From the NCBI GenBank assembly GCA_045837725.1, contig JBEWZL010000061.1, positions 1-64,000 on the forward strand: DNA of 64,000 nucleotides, given 5' to 3'. This document shows positions 2,211 to 58,965 of this stretch, piece after piece. Within the stretch, counting starts at the first letter, position 1, and every line of letters begins with the position of its first letter. Origin of the DNA: Vermamoeba vermiformis. Lineage: Eukaryota. The notes below the pieces were generated by a model. It did no database searches. It was given only the letters and a program-made list of their open reading frames with translations, and was not told the origin of the DNA. A program made the position numbers and the translations under genes.

Positions 2211-3579
2211 GAAAGGCTAATTAGAGCGAGTGTTGAGTGTTGCGAGTTGTTGTTGTTGAGAGGTGTTGTTCGAGTGTTCGGGTTGATCTGAGTTGCTTTT
2301 TGTTCTTTCTTTCGCTGTTGTTGTTCGAATCTGGTTTCGTTACTTCTTGTTCTTCGTGAGTTCTTTTGTTCTTTCGTTGTTACTTGTTCTTAGATGAGCT
2401 GTTAAACTCTTCGGATCGAGTTGTCGTTGAGAGCTGTTTGTTATTTGTTCCTGCGCTGTGTTTTTGGTTCGAGAGTTGTTGTTCTCTCTATTGCTTTGGT
2501 TGAATTAACTGAGCGTTGCCGCACCCCTATTTATATTTTTTGACGAGATTTTGGTGGGATAATGCAGTTGCCAAGCATAGGCAAAAGTTGCATTTCTTAA
2601 TTTTTCCGATGACCATAAAAGGCAATCGACGCGCATGGATTAATGTGGATTATGTAACACCCGTGTTTCTGCGTCTTGGAGATTGAAAAAGTATTCCACC
2701 GATGTAATCCACCATTGACGATTGTGCTTATTTGGCAATGTGTTCGGAATTGTGGGCCTCCAACTTGCCATCCAACTGGATTTGCTCTTGCTTTGTTCTT
2801 GCTTCACTTTATTCGTAGGTGCACGAGTCTGTTTATTATAAATTATTTTTTTATAGTTTGTTTGGGTATAGCTCAAACGACTGAGAACAATTATCTAGCA
2901 GATTTACAAAAAACGAAATTTAATAATTGAAAGGATGAGAGCCTTAAAAGCAATCTTCTCGCTTTAAATAGCCTCAAAATAACCAAAGAATTTCTAAAAA
3001 TATTTTGGATGGATATTTACCAGTTACAATCCTTATTGATGTTTCGAGCTGTTTACATCCTCGATATCTTTGCCCGTGTAGATTAAGCGTCAACGTGCTT
3101 GGTTGGATCGCTGGCAATAAATGCATACTATTATATATATTGATTTGATGGTTTCAACCTTGGAGCGAGATGAGGATAACTAAACTCAAAATTCAGCTTG
3201 GTGCGTCGTGCACAATCCAGTTAAAACTAAAATCTGCAGGAGAACATGTGTCATACGCCTATTTGTTATTTATAGCCTGATTAATATGCTGACTCATAGC
3301 TAATGTGGTGGATTGTTAATCCTCAACGTTGATCTTTTGCCGGTCAATAAATAGTACGTGGAGCAGGTGCGGCACCGACGGCGCAGATGCCCAAGCATAC
3401 ATACGGGAACATCGTCATATTCCTCGAAATAAGCGCTGTGGTTTTCCGGGAACAAAACAAACGACAATAATAAATATCGATTTTTTTGATTATTTATTTT
3501 CACAAGCTCAAGCAGAACAAACAACACCACTACTTTACTTGTAAGTACTTAATTATTTTTACAATCTTACCTACCCATC

Positions 3580-4785
3580 ATGTCGTACAGTTTGCACAGC
3601 TCTATTCAAACATTCGGCGCGGATTTGTTCAGTCAGATCGCACCAAACTCTAGCACGAATGTTTGCTTCTCTCCTTTCAATATTGCAGCATGCTTTGCGA
3701 TGCTCGTTGAAGGGGCCGATGGAGACACAAGAAAGCAATTGATGGATGCGTTTCACTTGCCCAAGAATTTTCAAAGCGAATTCAAAGACCACTCAAAAGC
3801 CATCAAGCACGCCCAGTCAACTATAAGATCAGCTCATTCTATCTGGGCCAGCAACAAAGCCCAGCTGGACGATGATTATCTTTTTTACGTGAAGAGAATG
3901 TTCAAAAACGCGAAGGTCGAATCCGCTGACTTTGGCTCTCTGGACGTCGTCAAAAAGATCAATCAATTCGTCAATAAGAAGACAAAAGGTCTCATCCCCG
4001 AAGTACTGAGCGCATTGAATATCAACACTCTTCTCGTCTTGGTGAGTGTTTTGTATTTCAAAGGCCAGTGGTGCCACCCTTTCAAACAGTCCCTGACAAC
4101 TCCACGACCATTCCATCTTCTCGACAACAAGGCCCAAGTACAGGTGCCGATGATGGCACAGACGGTAGAGCGCTACGAGTTCACTCGACAACCGACATTC
4201 AGCGCAATATCGTTGCCATTCAGTGGTCGTGACACATCGATGATCTTCATCTTGCCGAAGGACAACACAACATCCGAACTCAACAGAATGTGCTCAACAG
4301 AGTTCCTGACGGAGTTCTTTGCACACAAGTGCTCGTGGATGCGATCACAGCTCGTCGATGTGACAATTCCCAAGTTCAAGTTTGAGTGCGAGTTCGATCT
4401 CACCACTTTGCTTCCATCACTTGGAGTCACCGACGCTTTCTCGACCGCTGCCAATTTTTCAAAGATGACCAAGTCTGGAACTCCAGTCTACGTAAACACA
4501 GCAGTTCATAAGACGTTCATTTCTGTCGACGAAAAGGGTTGCGAAGCTGCCGCTGCTACAGCAGTTTGTCTTCTTGAGCTTGGTATCAAAAAGCCGCAAC
4601 AATTCGAGACATTCTACGCAGACCACCCTTTCGTGTTCATCTTGTATCATCAAGTGACGCAACAAGTTCTGTTCATCGGACGAGTTGTGGATCCAACCAA
4701 CGGAGCAAAATCCGAGAAGAAACGAGCTGCGGAAGATCTTGAAGACAAGGAATTTCAACGCGAGCATAAGAAACAGAAACATTAA
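3580..4785 (+). CDS. Serpin (intracellular, single coding exon)
   Basis: NVCFSPFNI, LYFKGQW, VPMM, IPKFK, hinge EKGCEAAAATA and serpin signature FYADHPFVFIL..VLFIGRVVDP. Confidence 0.97.
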   Translation: MSYSLHSSIQTFGADLFSQIAPNSSTNVCFSPFNIAACFAMLVEGADGDTRKQLMDAFHLPKNFQSEFKDHSKAIKHAQSTIRSAHSIWASNKAQLDDDYLFYVKRMFKNAKVESADFGSLDVVKKINQFVNKKTKGLIPEVLSALNINTLLVLVSVLYFKGQWCHPFKQSLTTPRPFHLLDNKAQVQVPMMAQTVERYEFTRQPTFSAISLPFSGRDTSMIFILPKDNTTSELNRMCSTEFLTEFFAHKCSWMRSQLVDVTIPKFKFECEFDLTTLLPSLGVTDAFSTAANFSKMTKSGTPVYVNTAVHKTFISVDEKGCEAAAATAVCLLELGIKKPQQFETFYADHPFVFILYHQVTQQVLFIGRVVDPTNGAKSEKKRAAEDLEDKEFQREHKKQKH

Positions 4786-23800: not shown

Positions 23801-24158
23801 ACTGCGAGTTACACCTGTACTGCCGTTTATGTAGCTGCGAGTAATTCGGACAGATCCGACAACAATAAAGTCAACTTTTGATTAATGAGCTCACCTGCTT
23901 TTTCAACAAAATGTCGGTTTCTTTTCCGCGTGTAGCCTAGAATCCACGTAGCGCTAGATCAAAAAGTCAAACAAAGTCAACGGAAGCGCAGATCGAAGCC
24001 CAACGAAGTAACAAATATTCTATTTAAAGAAGATCGTAGACATACTCATAATTCGACTCCTCTTAAAGAGAAACTAAGGTTAGAACTGTAAAAGGATCCG
24101 GTAAACTTAAAAAATTAAACTAGCAACGACATGCTTCTTACTATTGCTTCTAATCTGT

Positions 24159-26434
24159 TTATTTCATTCCTAACATTGAATTAACAGCGCGCAGATTAGA
24201 CACGAGGGCTGAATAGGATTAGTGTTAGTAAAGGTTGTTGATCGGATCTATTAATCGTTCAAACTTACATTGTACAGTAGCGGAAAATTGATTAGGCTGT
24301 TTCTTAAATACTTTATCGCGTTGTTCTAATACGAAGGGCATATTACGGCACTCAACTTCAATTTCGTAATTGACTTGATCTAACATCGAGCCTGAACTCT
24401 TTTGAAACTCTTTTCGGAAGCCTCTGGCATTCTTAGGCGCATTCTTCTCGTTCTATGTCACGTACAATATTAGCAAAATATTAATAAAAAAATAAAAAAA
24501 TTCGGTACAAAAATATTAACTAAAAAATTCCGATCCAAACGTTGATCTTTAGATCTAGATGCAGGCGGGGGAACAAAAAGCAAAAAGAAAAGAGCACAAC
24601 ACCTCCGATTCCCAGGTAGTCTCCTACCCCAGTACTAAGAAGGCCTGAACAAGCTTAACTTCGCTGATCGGACGGGAAGCGGTGCATTCTTGTTAGTGTG
24701 GTCGTGCCCGAGACGTTCAGCAGCATCGTGTTCGGGTCACTACTTACAACTAACAAGAACATCCGAATCGCAAAAGGCGCTTGGTACGTGGATGTGTTCC
24801 GGGGAACGAGACCGATTAATTGTAGTATTTATATTGAATTACTTACTGTTTTAACACTAGTGACGTCAAATTGCCATAGTGAGTACGCATATGAAATACG
24901 ATGTTTTTCTCGCTCATATTGTACTGGCGAGGTCAGATCCGGTACTATTCCATAATAAGTTAAGAAATTAATTGTAATTTAAATAAGAGCATGTCCATAC
25001 CTTTCTCTTCTATTGTAGCACTAATTCTAAAGTCTAAAATATTATTCGGACAATACACATCCAAGTTATCTAATCGAGTCTTCTTAATGCATCGGATCAG
25101 CTAAGTCAAGCTTAATTTAATACTTATGTACGATAAGACTATAATTCTTGCATACTTCTCCTTTATCATTGACCGTCCTTCGATTTTTAGTGCTGTCAAA
25201 CTGATCCGTTTCCTTTTGCACTTGATATTGCATTCTTGGTCCTTTGTAGGTCGGTTTCTTCGTTTCAGTGAATTTATTGTTCATTAACGTATTGAAACTC
25301 TTAAATATATCCTAAAAAGCGTTCTCGTAAGTAAAGCTCGATCCAGATCGGTTTTTGAATCCGTCTCATACAGCTTCTTTTCAATTATACTATTAACCAA
25401 CTATATCTATACTTACCAAATGTACATAAGATTCAAATCGGACTACTTGCGGGTTAACGCACGCTTCGTTCATAACTGATAGCAATTGTACATCCGTTAG
25501 AAAACATTTCAAATTCGTTTAGAGTAATAATAATTGTATAACTAATATACTGTAAGATGTTTTATAGCGCTATATACTCTTAAAACTTACTTGGAAGTCG
25601 GATGCGCTGATTTGACTGCTTGTCAATCACGAAGCCAAATTTCGCTTCAATTTCGACGTTAGGACGGTCGCCGTATTTGAAAATAAAGTCGCCGATGAGC
25701 TTAGTAATACTATCGACTGAAGAAGTTGGGAACTATTATAGCAAGCATAATTGAGTTGGAGAAAAGTAGCGGATCGGATCGACCCCGCAATACTCTTGTA
25801 ATTGTAAATTAAACGTTATAAAGGATACTATAGGCATTGATAGATATTTAACGATATCCTCGTTGCTATCTTGAGTTACTTCAGGTTTTGGTTGATTTTG
25901 AATTGGTGCTGAATTTTCCTTGTGGACATCTGACTTAGTCTCGACATTCTCTTTTGAATTCACACTTGTATTTTCATTTTCTATATTATTTTGATTGTTT
26001 TGGTGAGGTTGAGAGTGCTCTTCGTGTTGGTCAGAGTTCGTATTTGAGATTGGATCTTGAGAAATTATTTTATCTTGTTCCTGCGAGGTTCGAATATTTT
26101 CTTTTTGGTTGCTATAATCTTCATGTATAGTATTTGAATTATTTACAGTATCGGTTGATTTTTTAGAATTATTTGGGTGGTGTCCAAGCAGGATGGGCTT
26201 CTTTACATTAGCAACAGGTAAAGGAGGCAAATACTTCGGTGCATCGGCATCCTCTCGTTTATATAGTACACGTTGCGGTGCTGGTTGATCTTCGATTTTC
26301 TGCTTTTTAGTTTCAGGACCCTCTTCTTCGATCGAATCTACTTCTGCCAGCTTCCTCTTTTGAATATGATCGTCATTTTCAGTCGATTCGATAGGAATCT
26401 CTGTTGTAACGCCCTCAGATGTGTTTTCGCTCAT
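24159..26434 (-). CDS. CET1: mRNA-capping RNA 5'-triphosphatase (Cet1/Pct1-type triphosphate tunnel metalloenzyme), about 8 exons
   Basis: Spliced product contains DSITKLIGDFIF..NVEIEAKFGFVIDK..RIRLP (motif A), RFES, CIKKTRL..DFRISATIE, REKHRISY..WQFDVTSV, YEIEVE (motif B), LVSNLRAV. Low-complexity N-terminal extension. Confidence 0.92.
24575..24591 (-). terminator. Pol III oligo-T terminator of the 5S gene
   Basis: TTTTCTTTTTGCTTTTT immediately 3' of the 5S on the minus strand. Confidence 0.85.
24591..24709 (-). rRNA. 5S: 5S rRNA gene (119 nt), intronic
   Basis: GGGCACGACCACAC..CCCGTCCGATCAGCGAAGTTAAGC..TTAGTACTGGGGTAGGAGACTACCTGGGAATC..GTTGTGCTC. Helix I pairs, A/C-box-like internal promoter, followed by T-tracts. 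Confidence 0.97.
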
Positions 26435-26506
26435 TAAAAAAACAGTTTATTTAAAGTACAAGGTAAAAAAATATTTAATACGTTTGGATCGTCGGTCAAT
26501 CAGGGT

Positions 26507-49735: not shown

Positions 49736-52700
49736 ATGTCGCTCTTCCAACAAAAGCAGCATTGGACGATTTTGGGTTGCTTACTCTTACTTCTCGCACT
49801 GAATTATTCAGCAGCGATGGATGTAACCGAATCTGACATTACTTTTTCTTCTCAGCTTATTGAGGTGAGTAAGCGTTGTATAGTTATTTTCCCGAATGCG
49901 ACTTCTTCATCTTTTTATTATGACTGGTCTGATTTATTTTGTAGACGCAATTAGTGTTCAGAAAAGATTCAAGCCGTTCCGCAAGTCAAGGCATCGGTCT
50001 GAGTGTATCTCTGAGTGGTCCAGGAGCACCTCAGATCAATCCAGAGGATGTATTGTACAAGAATGGAGGTTCAATCGAAGTTCGACCGGTAAGTTGTTTA
50101 TGGTTTCGGCTGTGTTGATTACGCTCGTTCTGACGAACACTTTACAGACTCAATCAGGCATCAGTGATGCGAACAAAATCAACGGTCATTCATCTTTTGT
50201 CGTGCTCACGTTGCTTGGCATCGCAGGGTTGTGTCTTGGACCAAAATTCAAGTCACCAATGACAGGTAACGTGCTCGAAATCTGTGTAGTGTGGTCGATC
50301 TAACTGGATTGTAGGAGTGCTATTTATATCTCTCGCGCTTCTTTTAAGCACAGTCATCTCACTGCAAGACTTCTCCGCTGACTGGACACTTGAAGTGGTT
50401 GCTACAGTCCCCGAGTCATTCACACTGCAATCACTGACCATTAACATGATGCGTGGCAGTGTTCGCACAGACGGTGATATTGGCATGGAGATCAACAACC
50501 TTCGCATCGACTTGTGTAATGCTGGTGAAAACTCCGTCGCGCTTGATGGCTTGAAGCTTAGTCAGTCGGCTTCCGTTTGCGCAACAGACGCAGTCACGTT
50601 GAGCAACCTTCAACTGACTGATGGCTCGTCGGTGGATGTTACATCGCTTGGAGGCTCAGCCACAGTTTCATCCAAGGTACGATGGACCGCGTCCATCTAA
50701 GGGTTAAATTTTACTGACACTATCTATCTTTAGAACGTTGCATTCAGTGGCTCATTCAATGTCTCATCTGGCGCAGGCTCGGCGGTTGCATCGGCTTGTA
50801 CATCACCTTCACTCACAATGAAGTCCGCTCAATTGCTTGTTGGCTCGTGTGGTACTCAACAACCTTTCGTATCAGTTCGTGCACACAGCGATGCCCTGTT
50901 TGCTGCTGAGGATACGTCAGTACCAGCAGGAGCAAAACAATGGTCAGATCCGTCAACATGGGGCGGAGAGCTTCCAAAAGACGGGCAAGCAGTCACTATC
51001 GCTGAAGCCGACACTATCCTTCTCGACACAACAACAGCGTCACTTGGCAACCTTGACATTCGAGGCACACTTATGGCAGATCCATCGAGTGACTTCTGGC
51101 TGATGGCAGATAGTATCAATGTGTATGGCACGCTTCGTGTTGGATGGCTCTCATCACCTTACACCCGTAACGGACGAATCACTCTCACTGGCGAGAAAAA
51201 GGGCAACTACACTCGCCGTGCTGCACCATTGCTTGCGTTCAGCAACGATGGAGTGTCACGTGGTCTTCGAGCACACAACGGCTCTACTCTCGAATTGCAC
51301 GGAGCACCAAGAACCATGTACACACGCCTGAACGATCACGCTGCACAAAACGATACTGTTCTCACTCTGGACTCAGTCGATGGATGGAATGTTGGCGATG
51401 AGATTGTCATATCACCTACTACATTCGTGACCACTAGTCAATCAGACAATCGTCGCATTGTTGCAATCGACCGAGAAGCAAGAAAAGTGACCATAGATTC
51501 GGGCTTGTCCTTTGCACGATGGGGCAAGCTTCAATATGTGACAGATCAAGGTCTCAGTCTGACACCAGGTGTGTTCCAAGAGCTCAAAGCACATCCTGAT
51601 GTCGCCGATGTTCTGGACGAGCGCGCAGTTGTGATTCATTTGACACGCAACATTGTGATCGAAGCACCAAACGACACTCACTGGCAACAAGGACATGGAG
51701 TTCATGTGATGTGGATGGGAGTGTCAACACGAGTTCATCTGAACGGTGTCGAAGTACATCGATGTGGACAAGCAGGAGCACTTGGAAGGTATCCACTTCA
51801 TGCCCACATGCAAAGCTACAACTTGCCCAATGGCCCCACTGAACCAAGCGATGGCACATTATTAGGCGATGTTGATGTATTTGTTCGCAACTGTGCGGTT
51901 CATGAAAGTGTCAACCGAGCGATTGTCATTCACGGCACATGTGGAGCACAATACGTGAACAACGTTGCATTTGACATTCTCGGTCATGCATACTTCTTTG
52001 AAGATGGCTCAGAGGTGCGCAACGACTTTATTGGCAATGTGGTTCTCAACGTGCGTGCTCCCATCAAAGAGAATCAGATACTGTTGACCGAGAGCTTTGT
52101 TGGATCAAGTGGCATCTGGTTCTCGAACGGCAACAATCGCCTCCGTGACAACATTGTCGGAGATGTACGTAACGGTGTTGGTGTATGGAACGCTTTTGCT
52201 CGAAAGCAACCACCTTCGTACGTGGATATTGTCACTCCAGGCGGCATTACCTTCCAGAATGTAAGCACGGAGGAGTGGCGCAGACGTCACAATCCCATGC
52301 CTGAGTCATGGACTTTCACCGCACGAAACGCCACTCATTGGTCAGCCGTTGGTTCACGAAGTGGCGCCCAGCCTGACCTCGTTACGGGAACGATGTACGA
52401 CAACGGTATTCTCACTGGATTCATGCTTAGTGGAACTGCCAGTGCAGGCGCCAAAGTGACATTCAGAGTTGATGGCTATGTTGGTGGTTGCTTTGGTCTA
52501 AGTCGCAATGTCAAATTATTCCCTCAGTTTACACCAACGCTCGACTACTTCAACAACACTGCCTTCTCTTGTTTTGCGTCAGGATTTATGACTGATTTCG
52601 CTGTCACAGACGAGATTGGCAATGTCGAGAGTTACAAGTTCATCACAACCAACGATTCACTCCCTGGTGAAGACCATAACAATCCACGACGCGTTTTCAC

Positions 52701-53949
52701 AACGTTCGTTCGTCATCGCTTTTGGATGAACAATGGCGGTGGCTATACCAACAGATTGTATCAGCCGCACTACATTGGATGGATTGGCGCTGATAACTAT
52801 GGCACAGATCTTCGAGGAGCCACTCAGATTGGCAAGATCGAACAAGGATTGTTCATTGGTCACTCGTTGAACAATCTCGAACCCCAGATCTTCACAAGAG
52901 CTCGACACGCTTTTGCGACCTACCACTTCTCGTTAGACTTTCATGACATGGTGATTATGAACTATCCTCCGCTGCCACGTCGAGACGTATTTATCGAACG
53001 AAAGCTGCTTGACATGCCTGGTGCTGTCGAGTCTTGGGACTTGTACTTGAATTCAGTCGAAATGGGATCGTACAAACTTCACAACTGGAAGCAGTTTAAC
53101 GTCACGTAAGTCCATTCAAATAATAGAAAGATTTTCTCGTTGACTATAACGAGGCCGAGCTCTAACTTAATCTTATTCAGTCAATTCGAACGCACCCCGC
53201 CACCAAACATCGAATACCTTTACCCATACAACGCTGGAGGTCCTGATGTTGATCAACGCTATTGGACGTTTTCAGGTGCGATGTTCGACAATGAAGGTAT
53301 TTTGGCAGGAAGACACGGCGACTACATTCTGTTCAATCACACATTCTTGACCTATGGCCTTTCGAACATTCGTCGCGTAGGCACACCAGAGTCCCTGACT
53401 GTTGCCACAAGTGACGTGTTCTATGGTTTGAAAGTGGGTGACGCTGACACTCGTGATGCATTCAACGATGCAGTGACGTTTGTGCGACTTAACAATAACT
53501 TCCAGTACGTCGCCAACTGGTCAATTGAAAACGGCCACAAAGCACAGATGCTGCCTAACATGCGTCACGCGTCAATTCTGAAAGGAGGCATCTATCGCGT
53601 GTACAATCAGGATATTACAACTCCGAACTCGCAGATCTATCAGCTGCTTGTATCCAACGCTAACAATGACAACGACACATTCATTGTTGGATTCCCTTGG
53701 GCAGCTAGTGCTCCAGTAATGATCTTATCGGGCCGTGCTGCGATCAATCCTGCTACCGGCCTTCCCTATGATGGTGAGATAACTTTGGGCTGGCAAGTTA
53801 TTGCCACAGAAGTGAGCTCACGCAATGCAATGACGACAACTCCACGAAGCTGGTGGCGCGACACAGCAACAAATCAGATCTGGTTCCATCATCGGGGTGG
53901 ATTCCCAGTCGATGGTAATCTGCATATTTATGCTCGACCTCCTGTATAA
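49736..53949 (+). CDS. Large secreted G8-domain + beta-helix protein (CEMIP/TMEM2/fibrocystin-like core)
   Basis: Signal peptide; G8 WSDPSTWGGELPKDG..ILLD..L.IRGTL; WNVGDEIVISPT; DERAVV..LTRNIVI; GQAGALGRYPLHAH; ESVNRAIVIHGT; GHAYFFEDGSE. Confidence 0.9.
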
Positions 53950-56367: not shown

Positions 56368-58681
56368 TCAGTTGAAAGTAAGGAACAACAGCGCGGTGAC
56401 TAAAATTGATAGCACACCACGATATTCGAATTGAGTCGCTGCAGTGCTAACTCCAGAGGGAGATCTGCTTGCGACCGGCGTAGTAGCAGTGTAGGGAGGA
56501 GAAGTGACTGGTCCGGGCACTGAAACGATTTCTGCATCAATTCGTTAGTACTTATTTGCGGATTAATAGTAGTCACTTACTCGCTGGAGTGACAGACCAA
56601 ACCGGATGTGGATTAAAATTTTGTTTCATTTCGGGCCAGTTGGTCGCATTAACCATTCTGAAATATGATTCAACAGCACCAGGTACTCCTAATTGCACGG
56701 CATACGCGATAGCAGGCTGAAGATTGCCCCACATACTTTTCACCCAAGATCCAATGTCATACTCGGCACTCAGTACTCCTTCTTGTGTGCTCAGCCAAGT
56801 CGGTGGCGTAGCGAATGTGGCAGCGTAAACAGCGGACCAATCAGCGAGCCAGGGACCCGCGCCTGTTTGGAAGTTGGGAATGTCGACGCTTGAGACCTTA
56901 ATCGTGTACGGAGCTCCGTTGATGTACCAGAAGCCAGTGGACGGTCCTAATCTGCCTACAATAGTCTTAGCCTTCCATTGGAAGAATTCCATGGCTTTTT
57001 GGTTGTCTGGATCCGACACTGGCAGATCGAGCGAGATCGCGTGACCCCAAGCAGCCGTAACAAAGTCTTGTTGCCATACAGCCACAACACTCGTGGCCTC
57101 GCCGCCATTGCCGTTGCTATATGCTTCTCCAGGCTGAATAAGTCCAAAGTCGTTGTTTTTTTGCTGGATGTACTTGGCGTGGTGGAACCGGATGTTGCTC
57201 TCCCAGCTCGCTTTGAAGTTGTTGCGATAGTCGTCCGCATCAGGAGTGACTGAATATGCTTGGGCGAGGGCTCTGATCATCCATGCTGAAGAACGAGTCT
57301 GCACGGCACCAACGACTGAATGCAAAATGCCAGAGCTGAAATTTCGCACGATTTCGCTGTCAGTGAGGCCCAAGTAGTTGGTGGTGGCTGCGAACTGCAC
57401 TTGTTCCATGAACAGCCAGCGGCCAGTGACTAAATAAGCCAAGTAGCCTACTGACGGTGAGTGTGCAGGGTCCCATTTAGGAGCTGCAGTTCCGTTACAG
57501 CGCGGAGTGATGTCGTACTTGGTCGAGGCACCATTGTTGTGGTATCGGCACGTGTCATCAATGACCAAATTAGGATAGTCGCTGAATCGAAGAGGTTTCA
57601 GCGTATTTTCATCGCGCCAAATCAGCGGATAACGACCAGCACTGTAGCCATTGAACACGATGCCTTTGTAGACTATACTGGCGTTAACGGAGGTCAAATA
57701 TGCCACGTCGTGCTCGGGAAGCATGCCAATGGGCCGCTGATAGCCAGGTGAAGGCATTGAATCGTAGTCGTAGTCGAAGTTGCCTTGCTGTAAGGGCACA
57801 AAAGAGCGAACTAAACGGATCAGCGCTCCTTGACCCGCATCAGCATCGGCAAAGTATGACGGAACAAGCAGTGAGGCTTGCATGTAGATCGTGTCGTGGT
57901 GGACTGTAACGGCAGGATCTGTTGCACCGAACCAATAAGAAAGAGCTGTTCCTGATAATAGAGGAGTGCGTGTATGGGTAGGAAGATCGATGAAACTGGT
58001 GAAGAGAGAGTCACCACCCAATTGGAAGTTGAAATTGGCGGTTTTGTTGGTCGGATTGGGAACGCGGATGTAGCCGTTTTCGATCCAAGGAAGAACTTCG
58101 ACCGCTCCTCCTTTGTAAAGTCGCACGTCTAACCAAGCAACGAGATGAGGGTCATTTCCAACAGGCTTGCGGTAAATCCAGTTCGACATCTGCCAGCCCG
58201 AAATCCATTCCAAGTGAGGAGAGTCCCAATCAGCATTTTGCCACGAAACACTTCCATAGCTCTCACAGTCTATCGCTGCAGTAAGACCAGTGGCCTTCAA
58301 ATCGCTAAGCGTGAGAGGAGAACCGTTCGGGTCACTCGTGGATGGACCAAGGGTCACAACCAACGGAGAGTCTGCTGTAAGAGCTGCATGGCCAGAAATT
58401 ATGGCATATTTTAATGAGCCATCTGACCAATAGTTTTTCGGCACGACTTGCATTTCGGCTAGATTTGAAGCAGCAACGTTTTGACCAGATGCGACGTGGC
58501 CCTTGACGAAAGAGAAGCCCAACGTGAATGGTGCGCTGCCAGTAACAGGACTAAGCAGCGCAAAAGACATCGAGCCAGTGGGAGATGGCACGGCTACGGC
58601 GGAGTACGTCGTGTTGAGACATGAAACGGATGTTGACAGCGAGCAAAAAAATGCCGCGCACAAAACAAGTCCAAGGTACAT
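56368..58681 (-). CDS. Secreted, GPI-like-anchored protein with a bacterial-like core (N-terminus resembles PcRGLX/YetA-type lyase barrel); exons 58681-56581, 56531-56368
   Basis: Signal peptide; PFTLGFSF.KG..KNYWSDGSLKYAIISG; WDPAHSPSVGYLAYLVTG; VWQQDF. A 49-nt intron adds ..PVASRSPSGVSTAATQFEYRGVLSILVTALLFLTFN*. Confidence 0.75.
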
Positions 58682-58965
58682 GTTGTTGAATGATATGAAT
58701 ATGTTAAAAAAAATAACTCTTCGCGTATTGACAACTTGTTAAAGGTAGCTGAGGTCCCCTATTTGTCCCGTGCTGATTTTGGTCAGAAAGATACGCGAAT
58801 CTTTGACGTGCGTTGCTGAAAGCAAGACAACATATTAGGCAGCAGCATTCCTACGTGAGAAACAGAGGAGTAGAGACGTGTGTCAAGGTAGGCCAGCGGA
58901 CATTCAAATGTGAGACTTTGTTTATCATCGTTTTGTTCGAACAAACGCTCAACTATTATTATAGT

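Follow-up and report, generated by a model that had tools for sequence, protein, structure and literature searches.

A complete 5S rRNA gene nested in sense within an intron of a predicted RNA triphosphatase gene of Vermamoeba vermiformis

We have analyzed a 64-kilobase (kb) stretch of DNA from Vermamoeba vermiformis (contig JBEWZL010000061.1 of assembly GCA_045837725.1, positions 1 to 64,000, referred to below as the window), in which a complete 5S ribosomal RNA (rRNA) gene lies inside a protein-coding gene's intron and on the same strand. The host gene probably codes for a Cet1-type RNA triphosphatase, one of the triphosphate tunnel (TTM) enzymes, which are described in the accessible part of PMC5027499. 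The 5S gene was sought with cmscan against Rfam 15 (family RF00001, gathering threshold of 38 bits), together with a permissive scan at E ≤ 0.1. The region 24100-26500 of the window was aligned with four data sets, namely DNA contigs (X1), RNA-derived contigs (X4), and two raw RNA sequencing runs that carry the same species label (X21 and X23). Runs X5-X20, among them water and soil metagenomes, had only small word shares and did not enter the analysis. The only ortholog available was a metagenome contig of 3436 nucleotides (nt), L001, which was the sole locus recovered when metagenome contigs were scanned with exon 7 of the host gene (95% identity over 61 residues).

The coding region of the triphosphatase occupies positions 24159..26434 of the minus strand, with its ATG at 26434, and our exon model divides it into eight exons that add up to 464 codons (exons 1-4 at 26434-25829, 25732-25591, 25475-25417, and 25311-25156; exons 5-8 at 25100-25001, 24944-24847, 24452-24269, and 24208-24159). 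All seven introns have GT..AG ends and measure, in order, 96, 115, 105, 55, 56, 394, and 60 nt. Taken by themselves, the intron signals (GTAAGT and CTAAC) and the TTM type of the triphosphatase would point to a fungal or fungus-like protist source. Pfam was run on five exons taken singly (2, 4, 5, 6, and 7). Exon 2 matches PF02940 (mRNA_triPase) with 34.8 bits over profile positions 2-48, above the cut-off of 24, while exon 5 (22.3 bits, profile 135-159) and the 98-nt exon 6 (24847..24944, 19.0 bits, profile 173-199 of 221) remain below it when taken alone; exons 4 and 7 singly gave no match to this family. The matches in exons 2, 5, and 6, that is, in three of the five exons tested, are colinear.

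Two acidic Glu-x-Glu strands can be seen in the translations, one in exon 2 (...VEIEAKFG) and the other in exon 7 (...YEIEVE), as expected for the two ends of the tunnel domain. We take them to be motifs A and C, which bind metal in Cet1-type triphosphate tunnel enzymes, and motif B would presumably be carried by exon 6 (HRISY...WQFDVT). The C-terminal Glu-x-Glu-x-Glu strand of these enzymes is called motif C. The original prediction, made from the sequence alone, had assigned motif B to the exon downstream of the 5S gene, which is exon 7 (24269..24452, with the acidic strand ...NYEIEVE...). We could not confirm this with exon 7 alone, for which no PF02940 or Protein Data Bank (PDB) match was obtained, and the assignment was probably a slip for motif C. 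An X4 contig joins exon 7 to exon 8 (24208/24269). Searches with single exons provided few relatives. The exon 7 protein had no PDB match at E ≤ 10 and no candidate among longer proteins, and its Pfam match to another family was at chance level only. Against 1.84 billion representative sequences it gave five matches at E ≤ 0.001, one of them a fragment of 52 residues with 97% identity; the other four, all proteins of more than 1000 residues, we judged spurious; in three of them the match was broken into several short stretches, and for one no stretch was listed. Exon 6 had no PDB match, exon 2 found only one 104-residue fragment among longer proteins, and no full-length homolog was obtained from the exon 2, 6, and 7 queries.

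Intron 6 (24453..24846 on the minus strand) opens with GTAAGT (24846-24841) and closes with ...CATAG at 24453. With 394 nt against 55-115 nt for the other six, it is far longer than its neighbors, as had been noticed from the sequence alone, and both junction reads and an intron at the same codon position of L001 (see below) support it. Near its center, with 137 nt before and 138 nt after, lies the 5S rRNA gene (24591..24709), on the minus strand like its host. The RF00001 match runs from 24709 to 24591 with 104.7 bits against the gathering threshold of 38 (E value of 6.6e-22) and covers positions 1-120 of the 120 of the model, so that the gene, which is 119 nt long, is not truncated. Helix I consists of nine pairs, all of them standard in the printed alignment, with no "v" marks in the NC line. 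T runs terminate RNA polymerase III (Pol III) transcription, and three such runs (T4, T5, and T5; 24575..24591) can be read right after the 5S: on the gene strand, the last U (24591) opens a TTTT, which is followed by a C, a TTTTT (24586-24582), GC, and a further TTTTT (24579-24575). The description with which we started, a full 119-nt 5S with an intact helix I and a terminator-like T run on the host strand, therefore held in every part, and the cmscan proposed as its check returned one full-length match. Neither the scan at the gathering threshold nor the one at E ≤ 0.1 found a second Rfam match in the 64 kb, and ARAGORN predicted no transfer RNA (tRNA) gene in the window, so that we are dealing with a solitary copy and not with an array. 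An RNA-derived X4 contig that bears a 5S equals the window over 24589-24715, with no other letter, before passing into a different flank. Since this expressed 5S is identical to the intronic copy, the latter is not degenerate.

The linkage between the 5S gene and the intron could be verified in a second strain. The X1 contigs differ from the window by several insertions or deletions (indels) of 3-4 nt and by one 79-nt difference, and therefore X1 is not the same sequence as the window. One X1 contig (167 nt, depth 462) spans 24428-24600; it starts in exon 7 and enters the 5S from its 3' end by 10 nt. A second one (420 nt, depth 492) takes in exons 5-6 (24825-25111); the stretch 24746-24824 is skipped or replaced in it, and from 24745 it goes on for at least 53 letters, so that 17 nt at the 5' end of the 5S are included. 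Both depths resemble those of the X1 exon contigs (500-670) and are thus single-copy-like. Both unique flanks of the intron are therefore tied to the ends of the 5S in a strain distinct from the window, which argues against the misassembly that the original prediction had asked to be checked, and the 5S-in-intron arrangement is present in two strains that differ by indels. The 79-nt stretch (24746..24824, minus strand) appears to be a strain polymorphism, with an X1 joint at 24745/24825 and an X1 depth of 27 in the bin 24748-24828 compared with about 490 alongside.

Splicing at the exon 6/7 junction is documented in a related strain by five reads (two in X21 and three in X23), each with a different start. 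These reads join 24847 to 24446 with six letters in between, which show two mismatches to 24447-24452, both synonymous, so that they correspond to exactly the predicted junction in a slightly different allele. Five more X21 reads have a loose end at 24446 and continue with the same six letters and then with sequence like the end of exon 6 (agreement of 0.74). In all, six of the seven introns have junction support in X21, X23, or X4: intron 2 (one X21 read, one X23 read, and one X4 contig), intron 3 (two X21 reads, one X23 read, and one X4 contig), intron 4 (one X21 read, four X23 reads, and one X4 contig), intron 5 (three X23 reads), and intron 7 (one X4 contig), in addition to intron 6. For intron 1 there was no junction among those listed, and the same holds for alternative junctions around intron 6. 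The expectation that the intron is spliced and that exon 24269-24452 is used was thus borne out in two runs of a related strain. The depth of the host gene in the RNA runs is only 1-8, that is, its expression is low. At 16 sites in exons 6 and 7 (the comparison covers these two exons, with the rows of the other exons left out), all RNA reads are unlike the window; L001 carries the RNA allele at eight of them, the window allele at seven, and neither at one, and the RNA of X21 and X23 therefore comes from a third lineage. The species label of these runs is that of the best DNA source, and it may be shared by more than one diverged lineage. X4 is closer to the window, with about 98-99% identity, and one of its contigs has exons 7 and 8 spliced.

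A few other features of the intron deserve mention. A perfect 11-nt inverted repeat (24687-24697/24749-24759) pairs 5S positions 13-23 with a stretch of the intron 40-50 nt upstream, which is within the range of shuffled sequences. The same 5S positions 13-23 contain ACUAAC, a word resembling a branch point, and a GTAAGT word occurs at 24748-24743. An A-rich stretch of the plus strand (24466-24500) draws reads that run on as poly-A (21 in X21 and 8 in X23). We considered a poly(A) site at this position and rejected it, as the reads continue as A on both sides, and this is probably a mapping artifact of A-rich reads on an A-rich stretch.

The comparison with L001 provides information about the age of the arrangement. 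All eight exons map to this contig at 75-87% nucleotide identity (blastn). The alignments omit 3 nt at the start of exon 5 and 2 nt at the start of exon 8, and the frame is open when these two exons are taken ungapped. L001 keeps all seven intron positions, with lengths of about 86, 117, 95, 52, 57, 124, and 59 nt. Its intron 6 lies at the same codon boundary (GTAAGG...TAATAG) and has 124 nt, and an Rfam scan of the whole 3436-nt contig gave no match at all, to the 5S or to any other family. The 5S-in-intron arrangement is therefore lineage specific. The 32 complete codons of exon 6 specify identical residues despite 13 base differences over 98 nt, and in exon 7, 58 of 61 residues are identical with 24 base differences. 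Synonymous divergence (dS) is about 1.4-1.6 and nonsynonymous divergence (dN) about 0.02-0.04, giving dN/dS ratios of 0.025 over exons 2-6 and of 0.010 over exons 7-8. Strong purifying selection acts on the coding region as a whole, and constraint is no weaker in the exons that follow the 5S than in those that precede it. A dS of about 1.5 also means that the lineages of the window and of L001 are far apart, and the rest of intron 6 shows no similarity to the L001 intron above that of shuffled sequences. A gain of the 5S in the line of the window seems a simpler reading than its loss in that of L001, because 124 nt is close to the lengths of the other introns. The mobility of 5S genes into introns that had been suggested from the window alone fits this picture, with the same intron position occupied in L001 by 124 nt free of 5S.

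The intronic 5S belongs to a larger repeated unit. In X1, 14 contigs track the window as far as 24745 and leave it there, and others part from it before 24572-24574 or 24589. These divergence points delimit a repeated 5S unit at about 24574..24745 of the minus strand (from about -36 to about +136), with approximate bounds. The summed word depth of X1 reaches 294,092 over the 5S bins compared with about 500-670 at the flanking single-copy exons, a figure that, as the tool warns, is not a copy number. A word depth several hundredfold higher fits a large 5S family.

Within the unit, we found an upstream box, GTGACCCGAACAC (24728..24740, minus strand), at -31 to -19 from the start of the 5S. The window has a single exact occurrence of this 13-mer; two matches with two mismatches elsewhere in it are at chance level, as three matches were reached by 4 of 100 shuffled sequences. 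Three other classes of 5S upstream flanks could be recognized among the RNA reads (19 X21, 8 X23, and 7 X23 reads), in which the 16 bases adjoining the 5S are unlike those of the window. The loose-end consensus of all three nevertheless has GTG(T/C)TCGGGTCAC on the plus strand at exactly 24728-24740, which on the gene strand reads GTGACCCGA(A/G)CAC at -31 to -19; the register in these flank classes was derived by hand from the stated positions. A fourth upstream flank, from one X1 contig, shows only a partial match to the box. A block that keeps its distance from the gene while the spacer between them varies is what would be expected of a promoter element under constraint, and we propose the box as a candidate for such a role. 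Because the box lies outside the transcribed 5S, on its upstream side, a 5S RNA that had been reverse transcribed would lack it, which argues for a spread as DNA or as a longer transcript. A weak second box-like 9-mer, with a score within the shuffle range, is found at 24794-24802, inside the 79-nt polymorphic stretch. T-rich sequence is also found 3' of other 5S copies, seen as A-rich loose ends on the plus strand. Thus, the box and the T runs would match a self-contained Pol III unit and not a 5S processed from an intron. Nineteen X21 and eight X23 RNA reads pass from the 5S into one shared foreign upstream flank (24711-24741; median of 49-88 loose letters). Such reads, coming from complementary DNA libraries, suggest that at least one further copy of the 5S is part of a longer transcript, and the embedding of 5S genes in transcripts of RNA polymerase II (Pol II) may not be unique to intron 6.

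The explanation that we consider probable is that a scattered, self-contained copy of the 5S gene lodged in intron 6, where it is read through by Pol II and spliced out, and that Pol III, if active on it, works independently. The unit, about 170 nt in length, would be made up of the box (-31 to -19), the 119-nt gene, which includes an internal control region, and the T-run terminators, and would have entered intron 6 after the split from the L001 lineage. Pol II would transcribe through the 5S, and the spliceosome would remove it with the rest of the intron, so that the host triphosphatase protein would be unchanged; for the host gene the insertion is presumably neutral. If the copy is active, its own signals would recruit TFIIIA, TFIIIC, and TFIIIB without any part played by the host gene, and Pol III would make 5S RNA from +1 (24709) to the T runs. 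Overall, this looks like a fairly recent and tolerated insertion of a scattered 5S copy, with no new mechanism involved.

Several points weigh against this explanation. The body of the 5S is common to other copies, reads over it cannot be assigned to the intronic one, and the activity of this copy is for that reason unproven. The letter that the window has at 24714, just upstream of the gene, appears in none of eight X21 reads and in one of 12 X23 reads, and the flank classes listed among the loose ends of these runs are all unlike the 5S flank of the window, both runs being from a diverged lineage. X21 and X23 mismatch the window at every listed exon site and are about 8% diverged in exons 6-7, and X4 has no contig over exons 5-6 or over the exon 6/7 junction; on both these grounds, splicing across the 5S-bearing intron itself is something that we infer from its diverged relatives. 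No target-site duplication or insertion scar was found around 24574-24745, where none of the six families of direct repeats detected flanks the unit. Finally, with only two lineages compared, a loss of the 5S in the line of L001 could also account for the difference between both introns.

An alternative is that the copy is intact in sequence but silent, a decaying passenger of young age in an active Pol II unit, where the passage of Pol II or the chromatin bars Pol III factors. We regard this as unlikely, although it is the most serious competitor. Sense-strand intronic tRNA genes of Caenorhabditis elegans have a lower Pol III occupancy, according to the accessible part of PMC4999229. The identity to an expressed 5S, which we used above as a sign of integrity, is equally expected of a young dead copy, and neither X21 nor X23 contains a read specific to this one. 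However, the signals it has in common with other copies (the box, the T runs, and the full gene) are all intact, the window and X1, and with them no fewer than two strains distinguished by indels, both have the gene, and this copy may simply be missing from X21 and X23, whose silence therefore says little.

A further scenario, to which we give little credit, would have a 5S cassette of about 170 nt actively spreading as DNA, tolerated in sense within introns of housekeeping Pol II genes, and acting here as a working Pol III unit whose output or bound factors interact with the capping-enzyme gene, either by blocking Pol II or through binding of uL18 or TFIIIA to the 5S fold in the pre-messenger RNA. 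If this scenario were true, the locus would offer a natural system in which to study how a type 1 gene's template is shared by Pol II and Pol III.

The original prediction had also offered the possibility that the 5S is cut from the excised intron of the host pre-messenger RNA (pre-mRNA) made by Pol II, in the way of intronic small nucleolar RNAs (snoRNAs). The sense orientation and the nearly central position within the intron would suit such processing, which appears very unlikely all the same: an RNA processed from an intron has no need for the box and the T runs that this copy has as in other contexts, with the box at the same distance, which argues against a 5S synthesis that depends on the host intron. 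Besides, the ortholog L001 manages without it, and a host with a depth of 1-8 could add little 5S. We know of no pathway for trimming a 5S out of an intron.

Just as improbable is a regulatory role, in which the intronic 5S would bind uL18/L5 or TFIIIA in the pre-mRNA and couple the splicing of the capping-enzyme transcript to ribosome production. It is true that a perfectly folded 5S would be part of every unspliced transcript and that the whole intron folds somewhat better than shuffled sequences (z of -2.1, with 3 of 100 shuffles as good), but the element is absent from L001, its sequence equals that of the bulk 5S and is not an evolved mimic, the flanking intron varies between strains by the 79-nt difference, and no alternative junctions are listed around intron 6. 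Least credible of all is an assembly artifact that placed a repeated 5S wrongly in this intron, given that assemblers can misjoin multicopy repeats such as the 5S but that X1 contigs distinct from the window, with exon-like depth, link both unique flanks to the ends of the gene.

Other parts of the window contain genes without relation to the above. A single frame of 410 residues (3553-4785, plus strand) has a full-length serpin domain (PF00079, 331.5 bits), with neighbors of mixed eukaryotic phyla in the ESM Atlas, and a frame of 791 residues (50734-53109, plus strand) has G8 and CEMIP beta-helix domains (PF10162, 71.9 bits, and PF24606, 126.9 bits). A frame of 721 residues on the minus strand (56573-58738) shows a weak PcRGLX-like match at its N terminus, of 19.9 bits and below the cut-off. 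A scan for sigma-70 promoters and hairpin terminators was discarded as irrelevant to a eukaryote.

For annotation, the consequence is that the long intron is real and that the 5S should be annotated as a nested gene. Should Pol III be active here, as the polymerase co-occupancy offered in the original prediction would require, Pol II and Pol III would share a short template, in the same direction, within a gene on which every mRNA depends. This would make the locus a compact natural test of polymerase interference at a type 1 (5S) gene, a subject studied so far mostly at tRNA genes. The comparison also dates the gain of the 5S, which two strains have and a diverged ortholog lacks, and the lineage-specific upstream box provides a candidate 5S promoter element. 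Otherwise, this is the kind of outcome to be expected now and then from scattered 5S genes in an intron-rich genome.

Among the known systems, those in which a small RNA depends on its host or on an element that carries it differ most from the one described here. Like intron-encoded snoRNAs, the 5S is a small structured RNA in the sense orientation within an intron. However, snoRNAs lack a promoter and a terminator of their own and are trimmed from the excised intron, unlike the 5S here, which has a promoter-like box, found upstream of other copies too, and T-run terminators. Intron-encoded snoRNAs are also mentioned in the accessible part of PMC2566860. Another parallel is with 5S retro-copies and short interspersed elements (SINEs), such as the mammalian 5S pseudogenes, SINE3, and the Cassandra long terminal repeats (LTRs), which likewise brought 5S sequence to new places, often introns. 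All of these are truncated or fused to tails, LTRs, or A-runs. The copy in intron 6 is, in contrast, full length, with no A-tail and no flanking direct repeat; the sequence downstream of it is T-rich, and its upstream 36 nt are common to 14 X1 contigs, so that upstream sequence is shared with other copies. The Cassandra LTRs carry 5S-derived sequence, as stated in the available portion of 10.1101/2023.07.14.548913. In plants, to turn to a case of regulation, the pre-mRNA of TFIIIA carries a 5S mimic (P5SM); unlike it, the 5S here is absent from the same intron of L001, the one ortholog.

Dispersed fungal 5S genes are closer. Some fungal 5S genes require a TATA box, unlike the case described here, in which the upstream box is not a TATA box. 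In Yarrowia lipolytica there are 108 scattered 5S copies, about half of them fused behind tRNA genes (PMC2566860), and in fission yeasts scattered 5S genes show gain and loss (10.1101/2022.12.06.519325), as far as the accessible text of both reports goes. The resemblance lies in solitary copies outside the ribosomal DNA with flanks of their own, here one in 64 kb and many X1 contigs that diverge at the edges of the unit. A difference is that the accessible parts of these reports describe no copy in a spliceosomal intron of a protein gene, although their supplementary tables may list 5S positions. Unlike the tRNA-5S fusions in the accessible account of Y. lipolytica, our copy has no tRNA gene in its window.

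The nesting itself is well known for tRNA genes in Pol II introns, which makes that of a 5S gene less surprising. Of 609 tRNA genes in C. elegans, 44% lie in introns, a share not above that expected by chance, and 56% of those are in sense (PMC4999229, accessible part), and many type 3 Pol III units lie in mammalian introns according to the part of PMC3509611 that is available. As in the C. elegans cases, so far as that same part describes them, we find an autonomous Pol III gene in a Pol II intron, a situation tolerated there in either orientation; unlike them, with their type 2 promoters and some conserved pairings, the gene is of type 1 and the pairing is not conserved in L001. The 5S gene of intron 6 thus adds a genuine but modest case to two phenomena already known, the scattering of 5S genes and the nesting of Pol III genes in Pol II introns.

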